Below are positions 2,466 to 39,458 of a DNA stretch of 39,458 bases, piece by piece (position 1 is the stretch's first letter; every line of letters starts with the position of its first letter). The notes beneath the pieces are model-generated. The model made no database searches. It saw only the letters and a program-made list of their open reading frames with translations, and was not told the origin of the DNA. The stretch is from the IMG/VR virus record IMGVR_UViG_3300045988_159199; one strand, 5' to 3'. Made by a program: the position numbers and the translations under genes. The DNA comes from a virus.

Positions 2466-3335
2466 ATGTTGTTGCAAGAGTTTTGGGATGACCGGTATGT
2501 CGGCTATTGCGAGCGCCTGCGCGAGGTCACGCGCGTTGGCTATGAGTCGGCTTGGCGATGCCATGTGGAGCCGGTGTTCGGCAGCATGGAGTTGGCTGAC
2601 ATCGGCGTGGATGACATCGAGCTGTGGCTGTCAGGGTTCGCGAGTCCAGGTGCGGCCCGCAAGGCTTGGGCGGTGTTGAGGCAGATGCTACGCAAGGCCG
2701 CGAAGTGGGGCTACTTAGAGGTCGATGTGACCCGTTTGGAGATTGATCTGCCGGCCAAGCCGCTCCATGTGCCGCGTCTGCTGACCATCGGGCAGACTCG
2801 TCGCCAACTACAGGGCTTTTATGGCCATGCGCTTGAGGCTTGGCTGATTGTGGACTCGTGTCTGGCGTTGCGGCCGGAAGAGGGGTACGGAGTCGATTGG
2901 GCGGATATCGATATGCGTTCCGGCATCACTCATATCCAGCGTGGAGTGCAATGGGTGGCCGGCCACGAAGTGGTGGTGCCGCCGAAGACTGAACTGTCCG
3001 ACCGGTTTCTGCCCCTTCCCCGATTCGCCGTCCGGCGATTGCGGGAGATCCGCAACGGCCGGAAGGGCCGTATCATCGGTGACCTGACCCCACCGCAAGC
3101 CGCGCGACGCTACGCCTCATGGTGCAAAAAGGAGTCGCTGCCCTACGTGCCGGTGCAGAATCTCCGCCACAGTTGGGCCACCAACGCCCTGGAAGCGGGA
3201 GTCAACATCGCGGTGGTCAGCAAGTTCCTTGGTCACACCGACATCAAGACGACCGCCAGATTCTATCTGCGACCGGAAATCGCGTCTCTCAAGGAGGCCC
3301 AAAGCATCTGGGAACGCGCGCTGATCGGGCAATAG
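2466..3335 (+). CDS. Tyrosine site-specific recombinase, predicted shufflon invertase (Rci-like role)
   Basis: GGAGG lies 5 nt upstream of ATG 2466. Tyrosine-recombinase boxes are present: ALRPEEG, NLRHSWATNAL and LGHTDIKTTARFY. It is transcribed opposite to the phage structural genes, and its stop abuts the first recombination site. Confidence 0.85.
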   Translation: MLLQEFWDDRYVGYCERLREVTRVGYESAWRCHVEPVFGSMELADIGVDDIELWLSGFASPGAARKAWAVLRQMLRKAAKWGYLEVDVTRLEIDLPAKPLHVPRLLTIGQTRRQLQGFYGHALEAWLIVDSCLALRPEEGYGVDWADIDMRSGITHIQRGVQWVAGHEVVVPPKTELSDRFLPLPRFAVRRLREIRNGRKGRIIGDLTPPQAARRYASWCKKESLPYVPVQNLRHSWATNALEAGVNIAVVSKFLGHTDIKTTARFYLRPEIASLKEAQSIWERALIGQ

Positions 3336-3337
3336 GA

Positions 3338-3348
3338 TTCCCTAACCC
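3338..3348 (+). repeat. Shufflon crossover site S1 (TTCCCTAACCC)
   Basis: Exact 11-mer, 2 nt after the recombinase stop. It reads TCC CTA ACC (S-L-T) in the cassette frame. Confidence 0.8.
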
Positions 3349-3665
3349 TGACGTCGAATCCGGTCGTGTCTCAGTTCTATCCCTCCACGCTTCCCGTGCG
3401 GGGCAACATGCGCGCCGGCATCGTGACCCTGCACATCTCCGGCTCCAACGTCGTCACTCACGCCACCAAGGATTCAGTGATCGCGAAACTCACGGCGGAC
3501 GCGCGACCGGCCGTACCGGTGCGCGTGCTGTTCGGTATGCAGGGCTCCTCATGGGGACTGTTCGTCGTCAACACCAATGGGGAAGTGACCGTCAGGCACC
3601 GATACGGCGGCAACTCCCTGTCATGGGATTTCGTGGACATCTCGACAACCTATGTGACCGCCTAG
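3339..3665 (+). other. Silent receptor-binding-protein C-terminal cassette 1 (promoterless, no start codon or RBS)
   Basis: The frame is open from the TCC of S1 to TAG 3663-3665 (SLTLTSNPVVSQFYPS...TTYVTA). The stop is followed by the next site. Confidence 0.75.
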
Positions 3666-32489: not shown

Positions 32490-32774
32490 TCACGCCATCT
32501 CGCTTTCGGCGAGCGCTGGAATGGTGTTTTCGGCGGTGTCGAGCTTCTCAGCCATGGCAATGATTGAGGACAGAGGACGATGCGTCACGCCCGCAATGCG
32601 GCGCAGCTCGTCAAAGTTAAAAACACCGACATTGATTTTGCGGTTTAACGTGTTCCGAGGAATTTCTGCCCGATCAGCGAGCATAACTTGTGTCATTCCT
32701 GACTCATTGAGGACCTGCTTTATTGCAATCCCTAAATGCCTGTTTTCAAGCAAATATTGTTTCATATGAGACAT
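32490..32774 (-). CDS. Cro-like XRE-family HTH regulator, first gene of the early (lytic-direction) operon
   Basis: GMTQVMLADRAEIPRNTLNRKIN is an HTH. The gene is divergent from its paralogue, and its first codons (ATGTCTCATATGAAAC) coincide with an operator-like repeat. Confidence 0.8.
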   Translation of the reverse strand: MSHMKQYLLENRHLGIAIKQVLNESGMTQVMLADRAEIPRNTLNRKINVGVFNFDELRRIAGVTHRPLSSIIAMAEKLDTAENTIPALAESEMA

Positions 32775-32864
32775 GATAAAACCAAGATTGCGCTCTTCAA
32801 AACACGGCGTGTCTCATATGAAACAAGAATGCTTCATATGTAAGTAAAATGTCTCACATGCCAA
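32759..32864. promoter_or_regulatory. Operator cluster of the genetic switch: four copies of TGTCTCAYATG(AAAC)-type sites
   Basis: 32759-32773 (gtttcatatgagaca) is the exact reverse complement of 32810-32824 (tgtctcatatgaaac). Weaker copies lie at 32831-32845 and 32850-32864. The region is AT-rich and only 74 bp are non-coding. Confidence 0.6.
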
Positions 32865-33229
32865 CAGGAAAGAAGACCGCGACGATTGAATCAAAGGCGC
32901 TTTCAATCGCAATCAAGAGAGCTATGGCCGTACGTGATTTCAAGACACGATCACTGGCTATCGAATCGGGAGTGCCTTATGGCACCCTCCGACGCATCCT
33001 TGAGCTCAATACAGTCGCCGACTATGAACAACTCAGGAAGATTGCGGGAGCATTGCGCATGCCGCTCTCTTCCATCATCGCCGACGCCGAGCACCTTACA
33101 AAAGACGCAGGGGTCATCGAAGATTACCAAGCTACCGATAACCGAGAAACTTCGAGTGACCATGAGAACATCGACATCGACGCATGGGCCGACCGGATCA
33201 AGGCCGAAGATTCCATACACAATAATTAG
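32849..33229 (+). CDS. CI-like XRE-family HTH repressor (no S24 peptidase domain)
   Basis: LAIESGVPYGTLRRILE is an HTH. It shares IAIK, LR.IAG and PLSSIIA.AE.L with the Cro-like paralogue. It is transcribed toward int and followed by a terminator. Confidence 0.75.
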   Translation: MSHMPTGKKTATIESKALSIAIKRAMAVRDFKTRSLAIESGVPYGTLRRILELNTVADYEQLRKIAGALRMPLSSIIADAEHLTKDAGVIEDYQATDNRETSSDHENIDIDAWADRIKAEDSIHNN

Positions 33230-33258
33230 TAGTCCACAGTCGCCGAATAAACAAAACG

Positions 33259-33286
33259 CCCCGGTCGCTCGTTATGAGCGCCGGGG
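33259..33286. terminator. Bidirectional rho-independent terminator
   Basis: ccccggtcgctc / gagcgccgggg forms the stem (one bulge). TATTTTGT follows on the plus strand and CGTTTTGTTTATT follows on the minus strand. It lies between two convergent genes. Confidence 0.75.
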
Positions 33287-33293
33287 TATTTTG

Positions 33294-34523
33294 TCATATC
33301 TCGTAGGCCTCTATGGTGAGGCTGGTGTAGTAGCGGCTAACGAGTATTTTCAATCGCTTGCCAACAAGTGGCTCAGATGCAAAGTATGCGGCCGTCGACC
33401 GCGCCGTGATTTCCGAGAGCAAGACACCTCCGCTTTTGAGTGCAAAGTGCGGTTTTGCCTGCGATCCTTCCGGCACCGGTAGCTGTTCGACAGTGGCCTC
33501 GAAAGCGATGAACCCTTCGTCGGGAATTCTAGGACCATTCCAGTTGTTCTCCGAGACGCGGAATATTGCCGTTGCGGCGACCACATCCGCTCCATATGCT
33601 TGTCGCTGTTCGTATTCCTTGAGCGAGGCGTTACCAGTTTCGCTTTCCTTCGCCTCTTCCAGCGTTGGCACCATGACGTAGATTTCGGGAACGCCTGTTT
33701 GGTACCATCCTTGGCGCATGGCCACGAGTTCCACATTTTTCGCGCCAGATTCAAGGATTGCACGAATGTGGATTACCGCGATGTGGTTGAAGAGAACGCC
33801 GAACGGTTTCCCTTTGTATTCGACCGCATACCCATCATCCACGCCGCTGCGCCATTGTCTTCCGTTAAGTCGACTTTTCAGCGTTATCGGACGGGTAACA
33901 ACGCTGATTTTTTCGGCACGCCCCTCTTTGAGCTTGAGTATGGGGCGTGGGTCGTAGACGTAGATTGTGGCAGGGTATGAACCGGAGACGGTTTCGGTTT
34001 CCCGAGTCACCGACACTGACAGAATTTTTGGCGGGATGATGATCGGCGACGGCGATATCGTCCTTGACAACGCAGAACTTTGTCCCGTTTCTCGACGAGC
34101 CGACACTAACGCTTCACCATCCTCTACCTCGACGCCGGCGAGCGCAGGCGATGTTTCATCATTGGGCTGTGCATGTCCGTGGTTTGCGCGTCCGTCCCAG
34201 TGACCATTGGCTGCTCGTTTTCGCTCGTGTTCGTTATCCTCGTCCAGCACGATGCTGGGGTCTTTTGCGGCCCTGGCGGCGCGTTGTTCGGCTCGAATCT
34301 TCTCGGGGTCGTGGATCATGTCGCCGACGACCCACAGCATCCATCCGACGAATGCGATGATTAGCGCGATTATGGTGCATGTCAGGAAATCGGTGCTCAA
34401 TCCGCCAACGAAAATCAGCAGGGCGAATATCCATACTCCGATTGCCAGAATCCGGAATATGACCATACCGATGGTTCTGGGCATCGACGCCTTTCGCTTG
34501 GCCTGACGTTTTCCGGGCATCAT
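33294..34523 (-). CDS. Membrane protein, 2 N-terminal TM helices plus about 300-aa domain of unknown function (island gene D)
   Basis: 409-aa ORF with no competing frame. Helices: MVIFRILAIGVWIFALLIFVGGL and FLTCTIIALIIAFVGWMLWVV. It is preceded by the duplicated leader. Confidence 0.8.
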   Translation of the reverse strand: MMPGKRQAKRKASMPRTIGMVIFRILAIGVWIFALLIFVGGLSTDFLTCTIIALIIAFVGWMLWVVGDMIHDPEKIRAEQRAARAAKDPSIVLDEDNEHERKRAANGHWDGRANHGHAQPNDETSPALAGVEVEDGEALVSARRETGQSSALSRTISPSPIIIPPKILSVSVTRETETVSGSYPATIYVYDPRPILKLKEGRAEKISVVTRPITLKSRLNGRQWRSGVDDGYAVEYKGKPFGVLFNHIAVIHIRAILESGAKNVELVAMRQGWYQTGVPEIYVMVPTLEEAKESETGNASLKEYEQRQAYGADVVAATAIFRVSENNWNGPRIPDEGFIAFEATVEQLPVPEGSQAKPHFALKSGGVLLSEITARSTAAYFASEPLVGKRLKILVSRYYTSLTIEAYEI

Positions 34524-34585
34524 GCCTCCAACCTCTTTGTTCGTTCGGCCGACTCGATGCGGCTATGTTTAGATTCTACCGCCGT
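34518..34585 (-). repeat. Leader repeat copy A (68 bp) covering the first two codons, the RBS and a TAGAAT box of gene D
   Basis: It matches 35246-35312 with 2 mismatches and 1 indel. The minus strand reads ACGGCGGTAGAATCTAAACATAGCCGCATCGAGTCGGCCGAACGAACAAAGAGGTTGGAGGCATGATG. Confidence 0.85.
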
Positions 34586-34594
34586 CTTTTGGCA

Positions 34595-35251
34595 TCATTC
34601 CGCCACTTCATCTGCCGACAGGGGTTTCGACCGCCATCGATACGCTGTCACGTTCCTTAAATCATCTATGACTATCCGCGGTCGCAGTTCAGGTCGGCAT
34701 TGCGTTTCTGTATTCCGGTCGAATCGGTCGGCGGCATCACATAGCGCAAGACACAGTTCCTCGACGGATACGACGAGGCTGTACTCCGCGTTTTCCTCGT
34801 CGTCATGTTCCCACGTCTTGCCGAGTTTCGAACTCAGTCCAATACGCAATGAGAACGAGACGTGTTCAAGATTGACGTCATTCCGCATCAGCCTCCCTTG
34901 GTCATCCAACTCGTACAGGTATTTGGTCTCCATATTGGCATCGCCGTTGTGAAGCAGTTCGCAGCGCAGCTTGTAACATGCAAGGGCATCAAAGGCCGGC
35001 ATCGGGTCCTTACCCATTCTTGAGCTAAGGGCATATCCACAGTATTGCCGGTACCAGTCCATGTATCTTTTCCCGACTTTTTTCTCTTCCGGAAAGGCAA
35101 TCTGCCCGTAGGCATCCGGAATTGTGAGCGAAAGAGCTAGGGCGGCGCCATAGCATTCCGCCTGCAGCGTCTTCCTTACCTCATCGGCAAGGCTTATCTC
35201 CATAGGGTTCATCATCTGCGATGCAAGTCTTCTATTCTTCGTCGACATCAT
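34595..35251 (-). CDS. HEPN-like protein (Rx4H motif), predicted RNase/abortive-infection effector (island gene C)
   Basis: The 218-aa product is predicted helical. RCELLH is encoded at 34949-34966 (CGC TGC GAA CTG CTT CAC). An Ala-rich first helix AECYGAALALSLTIPDAYGQ is present. The gene is preceded by leader repeat B. Confidence 0.75.
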   Translation of the reverse strand: MMSTKNRRLASQMMNPMEISLADEVRKTLQAECYGAALALSLTIPDAYGQIAFPEEKKVGKRYMDWYRQYCGYALSSRMGKDPMPAFDALACYKLRCELLHNGDANMETKYLYELDDQGRLMRNDVNLEHVSFSLRIGLSSKLGKTWEHDDEENAEYSLVVSVEELCLALCDAADRFDRNTETQCRPELRPRIVIDDLRNVTAYRWRSKPLSADEVAE

Positions 35252-35312
35252 GCCTCCAACCTCGTTGTTCGTTCGGCCGGCTCGATGCGGCTTGTTTAGA
35301 TTCTACCGCCGT
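35246..35312 (-). repeat. Leader repeat copy B (67 bp) covering the first two codons, the RBS and a TAGAAT box of gene C
   Basis: Near-identical to 34518-34585. Confidence 0.85.
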
Positions 35313-35323
35313 ATATACGGAAT

Positions 35324-35354
35324 CGCCCCGGCCGCTCTTGCGAGCGCCGGGGCG
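35324..35354. other. GC-rich hairpin related in sequence to the 33259-33286 terminator but lacking a U-tract
   Basis: cgccccggccgctc / gagcgccggggcg. It shares the arms CCCCGG.CGCTC and GAGCGCCGGGG with the other hairpin. It lies between gene B and leader copy B. Confidence 0.5.
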
Positions 35355-35369
35355 GCTTCGGAGCATCGG

Positions 35370-36512
35370 TCAGTTGTCCGCTTGCCGAAATGTTTTTGAG
35401 CCGAATCCCATGGAGGCTCCTTGCTCTTTGAGCCCATCCGCCCATTGGTCTAGGAATCGGAATGGCACGTTGAGGCTGTTTTCGGCCTTGAACGTATCTA
35501 TCCCTTTATTTGGGTCGGCCGGGTCTCCGTATCCGGCAACAATCATTTGCTTAAGTAGTATCGGATGCTCGTCACCGACGTGTACAGGCTCCTCTTTTCT
35601 CCATCCTCTCGCGCTAAGTTGGATTTGCAGCGATCGGGTTCTGTCCGCGTCGATTATTCCGAGGTTGCTCGCGCGACTGATCATCGATGATATGGACATG
35701 CCCCATCCTGCTTTGAGTCGCACCAAATCGGTGAGCATGAGGCGCTGTGGCATGATGAGCTTCGCGTCGTTTTGAGGCATGAGCAGAGCACCGGCGAATC
35801 GGTGAGCCTCCCTCTCCATTTCCCGATAGAGCTGGGGTCTGCGGTATCGATGCAGAATTAGGTGTCCGAGCTCGTGTGCGATGGTGAATCTGAGTCTGTC
35901 ACCCGTATTGTTTTTCGCGCTGTATCCGATGGTCGGCATATCCTTGCAGTTCGGTTGCGTCACTCCGTCGCTGTTCAGGTGTGCGGTCTGTTTCGAGGCC
36001 AAGGCATGGAGCGGTGCCACCACGATGCCCATTTTTTCTATGGCGCGCGTGAGATTGGGGACGCTGCCGGATTCATTGAGTCCGAGATGAGTGCGGGTAC
36101 TGTCTGCCAAGCGCTCTATGCGGCTTTGCTCCAGCTCATTTTCTCTTGGAGCTATGGCATCAATCCATGATGTTTTGGGTTGCAGCCTCAGCACCGAGGA
36201 TAGCTTCTGCGCAACCGAGCGGAGCAGAGCATATTCCGCAGCAATGGCGTTTAGTTCTCCGACCGATGCGCTTGACGTATGGCGATACGTCAATTCAACA
36301 ATAGGGACGGGCTGATCCTGGTCGAGGAAAAACGACAACGGGTAGTCGGTCGCCATTGAGATTCTGCGCGCGGCCTCATCGGTGAAATCGATTTGCCGGT
36401 TTTGCAGTTTACTGAGCGTTCCTTGAGCTATGCCGGTTTTTTCCGCGAGCTTTTTCTGGGTCATGCGTTCGACCTGGCGGAGCAGGATGACCCTGTCCGG
36501 ATTATAGTTCAC
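35370..36512 (-). CDS. XRE-family HTH fused to ImmA/IrrE-type zinc metallopeptidase (M78, COG2856-like) (island gene B)
   Basis: The N-terminal HTH reads MTQKKLAEKTGIAQGTLSKLQN. HELGH is encoded at 35862-35876 (CAC GAG CTC GGA CAC) within FTIAHELGHLILH...EREAHRFAGALLMP. Confidence 0.85.
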   Translation of the reverse strand: MNYNPDRVILLRQVERMTQKKLAEKTGIAQGTLSKLQNRQIDFTDEAARRISMATDYPLSFFLDQDQPVPIVELTYRHTSSASVGELNAIAAEYALLRSVAQKLSSVLRLQPKTSWIDAIAPRENELEQSRIERLADSTRTHLGLNESGSVPNLTRAIEKMGIVVAPLHALASKQTAHLNSDGVTQPNCKDMPTIGYSAKNNTGDRLRFTIAHELGHLILHRYRRPQLYREMEREAHRFAGALLMPQNDAKLIMPQRLMLTDLVRLKAGWGMSISSMISRASNLGIIDADRTRSLQIQLSARGWRKEEPVHVGDEHPILLKQMIVAGYGDPADPNKGIDTFKAENSLNVPFRFLDQWADGLKEQGASMGFGSKTFRQADN

Positions 36513-36545
36513 GTCTCTCTCCTTTTGTTTTTACCGCATTGAACT

Positions 36546-37202
36546 CTAGCAACCCACCTTCTCTTCGATTGTCAGGCCCTTCAGAATGTCGATTTCGTCA
36601 TCTGGTTCCGGGTCGAACCCCGGCATCCATCCTCGGCCGCCACCGCCATCCGACATGATGGGGAACGAATACGCCGATTTTCCTTTCGCGCCATACTTTC
36701 CGGGGCTTATCGGCTTATACACGCGCAGGAACGCCGGTTCGGGAAAAAGATAGTCGCAGGCGATGGTGAGCTTGACCTCGCTCAGATCGGGTTGACCAAG
36801 GACGTTGACCATAAGCTGGCCCACACCCTTCGCACCATTCTGGCTGTATCGCGCCCTGCCCGCCAGCGTATGACCGGAACACGGCATACCACGTGTGATG
36901 GGATCAACGGCATGGAAGTAAGAGATTGCACCCGTGGGCGTGTGCATGAGGTGGAAGAATCCCGAATTGTCCACTTCCCACCACCTAACCGGATGAAATT
37001 CTTTCCACTCCTTCGCCATGTTCATGTTGATGAGGTATGCCGCGATTCGCGATTTCTGCCGGTCGCTAAGACGCTTATATGAGGCGAGGTCCTTCTTGAT
37101 GTTTGCGGTGCAGTCTCGAACGAATTCAGGCAGAAACTCGCAGAGCGGACTAAAGGCCTCCATGACCGCCTGCTTCTCATCGATTTTCGCGATATCCGTC
37201 AC
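36546..37202 (-). CDS. Protein of unknown function, first gene of the A-B operon (island gene A)
   Basis: 218-aa ORF with a GTG start at 37202 (an alternative ATG lies 13 codons in). It ends 33 nt upstream of gene B. No motif was recognised. Confidence 0.7.
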   Translation of the reverse strand: MTDIAKIDEKQAVMEAFSPLCEFLPEFVRDCTANIKKDLASYKRLSDRQKSRIAAYLINMNMAKEWKEFHPVRWWEVDNSGFFHLMHTPTGAISYFHAVDPITRGMPCSGHTLAGRARYSQNGAKGVGQLMVNVLGQPDLSEVKLTIACDYLFPEPAFLRVYKPISPGKYGAKGKSAYSFPIMSDGGGGRGWMPGFDPEPDDEIDILKGLTIEEKVGC

Positions 37203-37244
37203 GCCAATGACCTTTCGTTTCCCTTGGATAACTTCTAAAAGAAT

Positions 37245-37263
37245 ATTTTAACACTAGATGTTA
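37245..37263 (-). promoter_or_regulatory. Extended -10 promoter (TGTTAAAAT) for the A-B operon, overlapped by inverted repeat TAACA-N5-TGTTA
   Basis: The minus strand reads agTGtTAAAAT (37253-37245). TAACACTAGATGTTA lies at 37249-37263 in the AT-rich divergent intergenic region. Confidence 0.45.
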
Positions 37264-37352
37264 CTATCAAGGAATAATTCGCCGCCCTTCAGGCACCACC
37301 AGAAATAAAGCCGCTTGCCGCAACGTTCGACCGGCGTGTCGCGACTGCCATC

Positions 37353-37381: not shown

Positions 37382-37423
37382 TATTATGTAAGCGAAAGCA
37401 GAACAGTGGAAGGAGGTGAGACA

Positions 37424-37573
37424 TGGATGAGATCTGGAAAGCGATAGAAGCCATCGGCTCCCTGCTGGTCGGAATCGCCGCAGTCATCGCGGCGGTGAAA
37501 TCCAAAGGCAACGAGCCACCACCCGCACCGAAGCCCAAGCCGCCGCACATACGGCGAAGGCCTCGCCGGTAGT
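37424..37573 (+). CDS. Small membrane peptide (49 aa): 1 TM plus Pro/Arg-rich tail
   Basis: GGAAGGAGG lies 6 nt upstream of ATG. Sequence: MDEIWKAIEAIGSLLVGIAAVIAAVKSKGNEPPPAPKPKPPHIRRRPRR. It is absent from the ORF track because it is under 60 aa. Confidence 0.6.
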
Positions 37574-37650: not shown

Positions 37651-37797
37651 ATGAACACAACAAACGCATACAGGCTCGTCTCGCTGATATGTGGCGCGAT
37701 GTGCCTCATTCTCGCCATCGGCGGTCAGGCCATCGCGGCCGGAACCTTCGGCATGGCCGCCGGAGTGTTCGGCTATCTGTCGGGAGGCCGGAAATGA
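37651..37797 (+). CDS. Small membrane peptide (48 aa), Gly-zipper-like
   Basis: GGAG lies 4 nt upstream of ATG. Sequence: MNTTNAYRLVSLICGAMCLILAIGGQAIAAGTFGMAAGVFGYLSGGRK. Its stop overlaps the next start (ATGA). Confidence 0.55.
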   Translation: MNTTNAYRLVSLICGAMCLILAIGGQAIAAGTFGMAAGVFGYLSGGRK

Positions 37798-38021
37798 GCA
37801 CCGCAAGATATCTCAGCCTCAAGGAGGTCGGCGAGCGCATCGGCACGAGCAATCCGGCCGCGAGGGGGTATCATCTGCCGGAACCGGACGCACTGATCGG
37901 CACGACTCGCGGCTGGCTTCCGGAGACAATCGATGCGTGGAACGCCGCCCGCCCCGGTCGTGGTGCGGGCGGCGGAAGGCCGCGCAAGAATCGCAATCAG
38001 GCCGATTCTCCCACCGCCTGA
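37794..38021 (+). CDS. Xis/AlpA-like small HTH DNA-binding protein (candidate excisionase)
   Basis: GGGAGG lies upstream of ATG 37794. Sequence: YLSLKEVGERIGTSNPAARGY..TRGWLPETIDAW, followed by a basic tail. Its 3' end overlaps the integrase 3' end by 25 nt (convergent). Confidence 0.6.
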   Translation: MSTARYLSLKEVGERIGTSNPAARGYHLPEPDALIGTTRGWLPETIDAWNAARPGRGAGGGRPRKNRNQADSPTA

Positions 38022-39238
38022 CGAGCCTTGTCGGCGAGCGCCGCAAGGCTTGCGGCGGACCAGTGGGTGTATCCGGCCGTCGTGCTGATTTTGGCGTGGC
38101 CCATCATCGCTTTTCTCGCGTCTTCCGGGGCTCCGGCTTCGGCGAGGTGCGTGGAGAAGAAGTGGCGGGCGCTGCGGATGGTGACGCAGGGCAATCCGGC
38201 GTCTTCGAGAGAGCGTTTCCAGCGGCGGCGTTCCACGGTGTTGGTGAGCGGGTGTCCCTCGCGCGTGAATATGAGCTGGCCGGGCTGGCATTGCCTGCGT
38301 CCGACGAGCGCCCAGAGTCCGAGCCACGTCTGGTTGCTGACGGGCACGAACCGGTTGCCCTGCTTGCTTTTCGGTTCGACGAGCCAGAAGCATCCCTCGT
38401 AATGGCGGGAGCGGAGCCAGTTGGGCACTTCTGCATCGGATCTGAAGCGTTGGAGCTCCCACATGATCTGGATTCCGTGCACGCCGTCGACGGTGGCGAG
38501 CTCTTCGGGCAGGATGGCGAATCTTTCGGCCTCTCTCATGCCGGTCTCGAACATGATGTTCCACATGAGGCTCCACATTTCGCGGTCGTCGTCGGTATCT
38601 GCCAGGTGGCTGTATTTGCGACGCTTGGGGTCGAGTGCGGCCTGCGCCGCCCGGGCCGGCTGTCCGGGTTCGAGGATTTGGGTGGCCTGCGACTCGTAGC
38701 GCGGCGGCGTTGCGGCGAGCGCCGGGTTCGATGGGATGAGGCGTTCGCGGACCGCTGCGTCGAGCACCTGCCTGAGTCTGAGATAGTGGTTGTGGACGGT
38801 TTTGCTTCGGTGTTCCTTGGCGAGTTTGGCGCACATTCCGTCGATGGTGGCGGGGGTTATTCTGTCGAGTCGCATTCCGCCGATGACGCTGCGGATGGTG
38901 TTGCAGTCGGATCGATAGGTTTCGAGGGTGCGGGGTTTGACATTGGGCGCGATGGTATTGAGCCATCGCTCCATCCATTCGTCGAGCGTTGGGGTTCCGG
39001 CCAGGGGCATATCGCCCTCGCGCTGCAGTCTTTTGATTTTTTCTTGGAGCCGCTGCCGCGCGGCGGTCTTGGTGGGAGCCTGCGCCTCGACCATGCGGCG
39101 TTTGCCGGTGCGCGGGTTTGGTGCGATTTCTTTGCGCGCGTGCCAGGTTCCTCGTTGATCCTGCCATTCGCTGCCGCTTCCCCGCGGCCTGCGTGGAGGT
39201 GTTTTGGACGTCGTTGTTTGGTTCTGTGCGGGCATCAT
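37997..39238 (-). CDS. int: Tyrosine integrase
   Basis: RSARHFFSTHLAEAG and MMGHAKISTTAGYTHW catalytic boxes are present, with an N-terminal SAM-like core-binding region. The gene is adjacent to att/tRNA. Confidence 0.9.
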   Translation of the reverse strand: MMPAQNQTTTSKTPPRRPRGSGSEWQDQRGTWHARKEIAPNPRTGKRRMVEAQAPTKTAARQRLQEKIKRLQREGDMPLAGTPTLDEWMERWLNTIAPNVKPRTLETYRSDCNTIRSVIGGMRLDRITPATIDGMCAKLAKEHRSKTVHNHYLRLRQVLDAAVRERLIPSNPALAATPPRYESQATQILEPGQPARAAQAALDPKRRKYSHLADTDDDREMWSLMWNIMFETGMREAERFAILPEELATVDGVHGIQIMWELQRFRSDAEVPNWLRSRHYEGCFWLVEPKSKQGNRFVPVSNQTWLGLWALVGRRQCQPGQLIFTREGHPLTNTVERRRWKRSLEDAGLPCVTIRSARHFFSTHLAEAGAPEDARKAMMGHAKISTTAGYTHWSAASLAALADKARQAVGESA

Positions 39239-39409: not shown

Positions 39410-39458
39410 TGGAGCGGATGACGGGAATCGAACCCGCGTAATCAGTTTGGAAGACTGA
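39410..39458 (-). tRNA. tRNA-Gly (anticodon UCC), 3' part only; the 5' half lies beyond the window end
   Basis: The reverse complement reads TCAGT CTTCCAA ACTGA TTAC GCGGG TTCGATT CCCGT CATCCGC T CCA. These are the anticodon arm with UCC, the T arm, the acceptor strand, discriminator U and CCA. Confidence 0.7.

Follow-up and report, generated by a model that had tools for sequence, protein, structure and literature searches.

A probable accessory slot in a Bifidobacterium longum prophage combines a RosmerTA-type gene pair with two further exchangeable cassettes

The 39,458-nucleotide viral sequence IMGVR_UViG_3300045988_159199 of IMG/VR (the window, meaning the whole stretch of DNA that was analyzed) comes from a prophage of Bifidobacterium longum, as judged by the names on near-identical proteins. 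Between its cI-like repressor gene and its integrase gene (int) lie four minus-strand genes, as an earlier reading made from the sequence alone had described: A (218 amino acids (aa), open reading frame (ORF) at positions 36546-37202), B (380 aa, 35370-36512), C (218 aa, 34595-35251) and D (409 aa, 33294-34523). We consider it highly probable that this locus is an accessory (moron) slot made up of three cassettes, namely a RosmerTA-type pair A-B and the genes C and D, with a shared leader. The sequence-only reading had proposed a single four-gene system of the abortive-infection type.

The distribution of the four genes across related public loci (numbered with an L) contradicts that proposal. 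All four genes occur together in the window, L021 and L024. A-B occurs with D but without C in L028, L036 and L040, and without either C or D in L001, L004, L035 and L041 (with other cargo in L001, L004 and L041). A peptidase gene accompanies C and D in L006, L019 and L026, and D only in L020 and L031. D stands alone beside the repressor in Bifidobacterium saguini and in L007, and C is found without D in L008-L017 and L023. Conserved co-occurrence of A-D was thus not found, as the sub-combinations occur in near-identical prophages. For instance, the commonest B. longum variant (L006) is 99% identical to the window by blastn at 39458-37349 (int and the excisionase region, xis) and at 35358-32000 (C-D-cI-cro), and the 1,990-bp A-B segment is swapped for 556 bp encoding a CapP-like M78 peptidase fragment. 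L028 equals the window minus C exactly, and both of its blocks of alignment include the 67-bp leader; recombination between leader repeats has therefore removed or added C. Because the modules assort independently in siblings that are 99% identical on both flanks, A-B, C and D are three independently exchangeable cassettes and not one four-gene system. The cassette shuffling that had been read from duplicated leaders and related hairpins is borne out by the ~95% identity of the leader repeat and by L028, which lacks C between the copies. The statement that the combination resembled no named system had overlooked the match of A-B to RosmerTA.

The pair A-B appears to be a new divergent member of this known defence family. 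RosmerTA systems are defined as a Zn-peptidase antitoxin with a toxin of unknown function, and transformation of the rmrA deletion mutant failed, which may reflect toxicity (10.1101/2022.05.11.491447). B contains the Pfam domains HTH_3 (an N-terminal XRE helix-turn-helix, HTH) and Peptidase_M78 (ImmA/IrrE), with the HEXXH motif at residues 213-217 and a C-terminal extension, so the predicted fusion of an XRE HTH to an ImmA/IrrE peptidase stands. Residues 4-332 of the protein align with the PADLOC RmrA profile PDLC03953 (E = 1.8e-86), and B also matches 13 further RmrA profiles (14 in total) and phrog_2439 (E = 2.8e-69). The marks of a RosmerTA antitoxin (HTH, ImmA/M78 Zn-peptidase, RmrA profile match) are therefore all found in B, and A-B forms a co-oriented, conserved two-gene unit. 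The two genes are 33 nt apart, and a Shine-Dalgarno sequence (AAGGAGAG) precedes the GTG start of B. A B homologue directly follows A in 10 out of 10 fetched related loci that hold DNA downstream of A (L001, L003, L004, L021, L024, L028, L035, L036, L040 and L041). These A-B loci adjoin integrases of 36-99% identity. In L035 (B. vespertilionis), the pair lies in a chromosomal site flanked by insertion sequences (IS), with no detectable relative of the prophage's integrase within 4 kb.

The assignment of A is less direct. A matches the PADLOC RmrT profile PDLC03939 weakly though over nearly its full length (E = 0.0042). When the family was recovered by profile, 5 out of 22 remote homologues matched the same profile at E ≤ 1e-3 (best 3.6e-13), and because of this transitive link we read A as a divergent RmrT-like putative toxin. 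The family is tiny, with 11 clusters in a set of 5.8 billion proteins and 25 representatives among 1.84 billion. The protein is soluble, with no hydrophobic or transmembrane (TM) segment. An AlphaFold (AF2) model built on a 22-sequence alignment has a mean pLDDT of 85.9 and a pTM of 0.79 and shows a long helical hairpin, then a beta-rich domain and an acidic disordered tail. Foldseek retrieved no neighbour of the model from either PDB (best E = 1.6) or BFVD (best E = 0.85), and a profile search of A against PDB sequences returned noise only.

The pair shares several traits with characterized RosmerTA systems (Millman et al. 2022; Kita RmrTA, Ernits et al. 2023). Both are two-gene operons with an XRE HTH + ImmA/M78 antitoxin, and in both the toxin gene precedes the antitoxin gene and encodes a protein that has no recognized domain and differs from system to system. 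Differing RmrT toxins pair with protease-containing RmrA, and the RosmerTA of the Gordonia phage Kita is a validated, actinophage-encoded example (PMC10440598), so that carriage by a temperate actinophage is also shared. A differs from RosmerTA toxins generally in its very small family, its marginal similarity to one RmrT profile and its confident model without a solved relative, and it is soluble whereas the RmrT of Kita depolarizes membranes. B, for its part, resembles ImmR/ImmA of ICEBs1, IrrE/DdrO and CapH/CapP in coupling an M78 metallopeptidase to an XRE HTH DNA-binding module, and the likeness to the CapH/CapP type extends to the sibling slot allele that encodes a stand-alone CapP-like peptidase. 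Unlike in those systems, the HTH and peptidase of B are fused in one protein of 380 aa, strictly paired with a putative toxin and dispensable for the prophage backbone.

Upstream of A, a promoter- and operator-like region (37242-37270, minus strand) contains TTGATA, the palindrome TAACATCTAGTGTTA (37249-37263) and a TAAAATAT box. The box is invariant in five diverged loci and overlaps the palindrome, which is perfect in the window. A GTAACA element is likewise conserved in front of A homologues that share as little as 41% protein identity. The scan for promoter consensus sequences also gave a hit in this region. The palindrome/TAAAATAT region is a plausible candidate operator for the HTH of B.

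In one of the A-B loci, a 57-kb viral contig (L041), the pair is 56-62% identical to that of the window. On one side of it lies a HicB-like ORF, itself preceded by a polynucleotide kinase/ligase-like gene, and on the other a 299-aa ClpP/SppA-like serine-protease ORF beside int (L041:5916-6815 and 3230-3607 were noted). These neighbours were identified by reading the sequences alone, with no profile search.

The segment that differs between the otherwise 99%-identical siblings spans 35359-37348 (minus strand) and holds A-B in the window. The breakpoints of this variable slot (slot 1) recur at ~37349 and ~35358 in L006, L019, L020, L026, L027, L031 and L034. A GC-rich hairpin after B (35321-35354, minus strand; -30.7 kcal/mol, z -3.2) forms the shared right-hand boundary of the slot alleles: it is kept after five different slot contents, and a related hairpin also follows D. 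The slot and its surroundings contain a SIR2 protein in L034 (match to PDC-S25, E = 4e-130) and HEC-09 in L027 (E = 3e-28). In L025 they contain a type II methyltransferase (E = 4e-105) along with a CapP-like peptidase, an IS and what may be a restriction enzyme. In L004, A-B is kept and followed by a DEDDh/BRCT exonuclease (PDC-S48) and PDC-S42. As SIR2, HEC-09 and the peptidase-methyltransferase combination take the place of A-B in siblings, slot 1 reads as a defence hotspot. The proposal of accessory, defence-related cargo between int and the repressor therefore holds, given that A-B belongs to a family of validated anti-phage toxin-antitoxin (TA) systems and that the siblings' slot holds known or candidate defence genes.

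Actinophages carry defence genes between int and the repressor (PADLOC names Butters_gp30_gp31 and Phrann_gp29_gp30), and P2 and P4 have defence hotspots. The slot described here is like these in its genomic position, in its mixture of known defence genes with unknown ones and in cargo that is highly variable between near-identical prophages. It is unlike them in that a conserved terminator-promoter-leader unit joins the cassettes and is reused for at least five cargo genes, and the host genus differs.

Two observations concern the boundaries of the slot. The 3' end of B (…KTFRQADN*, window 35372-35400) resembles in its DNA the 3' end of an unrelated small ORF in the slot of L006 and L025 (…KALADKDN*, L006:6130-6161), with the similarity located immediately before the shared hairpin. 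The coding 3' ends may thus themselves form part of the recombination boundary. A direct repeat of 17 nt, found close to either end of the A-B segment, was treated as chance, as L004 does not share it.

The leader is a 68-bp sequence duplicated upstream of C and D at ~95% identity. Copy 1 (35246-35312, minus strand) would drive C and consists of a TAGAAT box, an untranslated region (UTR) of ~45 nt, the Shine-Dalgarno sequence GAGGTTGGAGG and ATGATG. Copy 2 (34516-34585, minus strand) would drive D and is a direct repeat of copy 1, so that the copies flank C. The full unit runs in the order GC hairpin, GATTCCGTATATAC, GGCGGTAGAATC (TAGAAT box), ~45 nt of UTR, GAGGTTGGRGG and ATGATG. Pattern scans found the leader in 14 viral and 23 metagenomic stretches (37 public loci), with only five types of cargo: C, D, a 148-aa protein, the DEDDh/BRCT exonuclease of L004 and a 470-aa DEDDh protein. 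The leader had no Rfam family and no covarying pairs, so its reading as a structured RNA was dropped, and we treat it as a portable promoter and UTR that also serves as a recombination substrate. The earlier claim that the island has its own promoters fares unevenly. A scan for the sigma-70 consensus stayed at chance level (4 found against 4.0 expected), whereas the invariance of the TAAAATAT box in five loci and of the TAGAAT box in six leader copies speaks for it.

Some carriers of the leader show further peculiarities. The 148-aa cargo (L027:3240-3686) has no PADLOC match, and L027 has early genes that are 100% identical to those of the window, yet lacks the window's cI/cro region. The 470-aa cargo with the DEDDh exonuclease domain is encoded in L061 by an ORF starting after 12962. 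In L008-L012 (e.g. L008:4510-5260), a C homologue of 79% identity has the full hairpin and leader upstream and a second leader downstream that ends after ~27 bp. This cassette lies within a polysaccharide-biosynthesis region, with an AAA_14/DUF4143 gene as its neighbour; it seems to have been stranded outside any recognizable prophage, with the ~27-bp leader as a recombination scar.

C itself matches only phrog_18591, a family without known function (E = 3e-19); searches of Pfam, PADLOC, NCBIfam and PDB gave nothing. Across its homologues, the residues P45, D46, G60, Y63, W66, C92, R96, C97, L100, H101, G103 and C167 are invariant, in the pattern PD...C-x3-R-C-x2-L-H-x-G...C. Homologues of ~43% identity in other gut phages lie directly beside SoFic (E = 1.3e-84) or PDC-M02A/B, and distant homologues occur beside int in the prophage TCUAN1 of Acinetobacter and in an unannotated gap of the E. 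coli phage ECP1. C is probably a defence or counter-defence factor, carried as a single-gene cassette of a phage accessory family.

The sequence-only reading had called C HEPN-like on account of an Rx4H motif. The motif itself (R96-C-E-L-L-H101) is well conserved: it is invariant in 7 sequences, including the Acinetobacter and E. coli phage homologues, and down to 20-25% identity. Together with the defence-type neighbour genes and an N-terminal half predicted to be helical in a low-confidence model, this would be consistent with a HEPN ribonuclease acting as a stand-alone abortive-infection effector. The HEPN assignment came from the motif alone, however, and 11 members of the family searched against Pfam at E ≤ 1 matched neither HEPN nor any other family, apart from a chance-level match to Cag12; PADLOC, NCBIfam and PDB likewise gave no match for C. 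The motif is also embedded among the invariant C92, C97 and C167, and these cysteines might just as well make up a metal-binding site together with H101. The AF2 model (7 sequences, pLDDT 44, pTM 0.37) mixes helices and strands and is too poor to use; Foldseek found nothing for it at E < 0.8, a search that is uninformative with a model of this quality, and a profile search against PDB sequences gave noise only. We therefore regard a HEPN activity of C as doubtful.

The only hydrophobic stretch of D, residues 15-72, has room for two TM helices (~20-70), in agreement with its earlier description as a two-TM protein. Its architecture comprises a basic N-terminus, the two TM helices, a variable linker of ~100 aa and a conserved C-terminal domain of ~230 aa. 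By the positive-inside rule, both termini are predicted to be cytoplasmic, and with them the C-terminal domain. All homologues found, in 39 clusters, come from Bifidobacterium. Searches of Pfam, PADLOC, PHROGs, NCBIfam, PDB and cultured phage genomes gave no match to D, and thus no homology there to a known superinfection-exclusion (Sie) family.

The position of D is more informative. It is adjacent and convergent to cI in the window, lies beside the repressor in L006 and L007, and occupies the place next to the repressor more constantly than any other gene. As is typical of superinfection-exclusion genes, D encodes a membrane protein in the lysogeny module beside the repressor. Because of this constancy, its position suggests that D most likely has a lysogen-expressed exclusion or defence function. 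Sie2009 and Ltp of TP-J34 are likewise membrane-associated and encoded directly beside the repressor in the lysogeny module; D differs from them in having no sequence similarity and in its large conserved domain, which is predicted to be cytoplasmic and not surface-exposed.

A related protein, P0066 (L034:3166-3861, 54 member sequences), joins the N-terminal membrane anchor and linker of D to the first ~80 residues of a DEDDh exonuclease. The SIR2 (PDC-S25) gene lies before it and a multi-TM ORF of 228 aa after it. The idea that this raises, of D as a membrane anchor for exchangeable effector domains, was rejected, as P0066 ends at 231 aa with exonuclease motif I only. Rather than a functional fusion, P0066 seems to be a recombination scar.

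How the cassettes might work can be sketched from the RosmerTA family and the arrangement of the locus. B would repress the A-B operon through binding of its HTH at the palindrome/TAAAATAT region and would neutralize A. Infection by another phage would relieve the neutralization of A, probably through the peptidase domain of B as in switches of the ImmA/ImmR type, and the freed A would then arrest or kill the cell, so that the infection is aborted. The terminator-promoter-leader unit, found with C, D and at least three other cargo genes, would supply each cassette with its own expression signals and would also serve homologous recombination, by which cassettes are gained and lost.

Several points weigh against this account. 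The direct similarity of A to RmrT is marginal: only 3 out of 10 close relatives of A reach E < 1 with PDLC03939, and the transitive link would probably fall under PADLOC's own cut-off. To our knowledge, neither the trigger nor the role of the peptidase is known even for validated RosmerTA systems. An M78 peptidase of some kind is present in every sibling that has the same cI and a visible slot 1, which leaves room for a regulatory role of the domain. The promoters are assigned at the level of consensus only, and the proposed defence roles of C and D come only from position and neighbouring genes.

A first alternative is that A-B mainly serves as an addiction or stabilization module that keeps the prophage or island in place, and is not a phage defence. 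The pair has a type II TA architecture and is carried on mobile elements (prophages and the IS-flanked island), and TA genes of B. longum prophages have been discussed as addiction modules (10.64898/2026.02.18.706556). We judge this unlikely as the main function, since protection against phages has been seen with the RosmerTA systems tested to date (10.1101/2022.05.11.491447; PMC10440598) and the alternative contents of the slot are of the defence type. The addiction and defence roles are compatible and not mutually exclusive.

A second alternative places B in the lysis-lysogeny circuitry: it would be an anti-repressor protease akin to ImmA, with the 126-aa cI-like repressor as its cleavage target and A as an accessory. 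The M78/ImmA domain is present, and ImmR of ICEBs1 is cleaved by ImmA (summarized in PMC10440598). The cI-like protein is short, has no Pfam match and lacks a LexA-type autocleavage domain, and the same-cI siblings mentioned above all carry either A-B or the stand-alone CapP-like M78 peptidase. This correlation comes from a few closely linked lineages, however, and B has its own HTH and a full-length RmrA match. Moreover, A-B moves as a unit beside unrelated integrases, with varied downstream genes and into an IS-flanked chromosomal site. We consider the anti-repressor role improbable, and more so than a mainly addictive one.

Finally, a single abortive-infection system in which the protease sensor B controls the RNase C and the membrane effector D is very hard to sustain: the four genes are co-oriented and contiguous in the window, L021 and L024, and all lie in a defence-prone slot, but A-B, C and D assort independently in near-identical prophages, and C and D each have their own promoter-leader.

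On the preferred reading of a cassette slot, the locus reveals no new kind of system. What it adds is a swappable defence slot in B. longum prophages, followed by two conserved genes, C and D, without an assigned function. A-B, C and D are all candidates for prophage-mediated immunity; C and D stand as uncharacterized candidates in a prophage defence hotspot with probable leader-mediated exchange. B. longum is a keystone symbiont of the infant gut, and we know of almost no phage-host genetics for it. The defence field gains a rare soluble RmrT-like putative toxin whose predicted fold is unmatched, and the shared leader offers a sequence handle to track cassette turnover in metagenomes. A bolder interpretation, which we put forward only tentatively, is that C, D or both act as new anti-phage or exclusion factors encoded by a single gene each, that the leader defines a recombination-driven cassette array in Bifidobacterium prophages and that A represents a new toxin fold. 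If this were true, the leader could also be used as a handle to find further immunity genes.

Apart from this slot, the window makes up a complete prophage of the siphovirus type, with PHROG matches to an endolysin, minor tail proteins, a tape measure, a major head protein, a portal, TerL, a replication initiator and a ParB-like protein, which agrees with the earlier observation that the standard phage functions are encoded outside the four genes. The DNA of the island found nothing among cultured phage genomes. The 3' part of a tRNA lies at the right end of the window (39413-39458, minus strand; Rfam tRNA), and in the near-identical locus L006 a tRNA-Gly(TCC) stands directly upstream of int (37997-39238 in the window, minus strand); the prophage is integrated at tRNA-Gly(TCC).

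On the other side of the island, the cI-like gene (126 aa, 32849-33229, plus strand) and a cro-like gene (94 aa, 32490-32774, minus strand) both encode HTH proteins and form a divergent paralogous pair, ~40% identical over 83 aa. As the cI-like protein has no Pfam match, no S24 peptidase domain was detected in it. Several copies of an operator-like, GTCTCATATGAAAC-like element occur in and around the 74-bp cI/cro intergenic region (window 32760-32860). Between the convergent D and cI, the bidirectional intrinsic terminator that had been predicted is confirmed by its folding energies on the two strands (33251-33294; -31.7 and -29.1 kcal/mol, z -6.0 and -5.5), and it is flanked by an A-run and a T-run.

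The A/T-richness of the four genes relative to the structural genes was also correctly noted. A-D have a GC content of 0.52-0.55 and a GC content at third codon positions (GC3) of 0.60-0.68, compared with 0.60-0.65 and mostly 0.73-0.90 in the structural genes. The low-GC tract extends over cI and cro as well, however, and is not peculiar to A-D.

Between A and int, the plus strand encodes two small hydrophobic (membrane) ORFs followed by a putative xis, none of which featured in the sequence-only reading. The first (37423-37572) encodes 49 aa with a Pro/Arg-rich tail and the second (37651-37797) 48 aa with a glycine-zipper-like sequence. The putative excisionase-like ORF (75 aa, 37794-38021) had no match in a Pfam search. 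Its start is overlapped by the 48-aa ORF by 4 nt, and it overlaps the 3' end of int convergently. This block of small ORFs and xis is 98-99% conserved among the sibling prophages.

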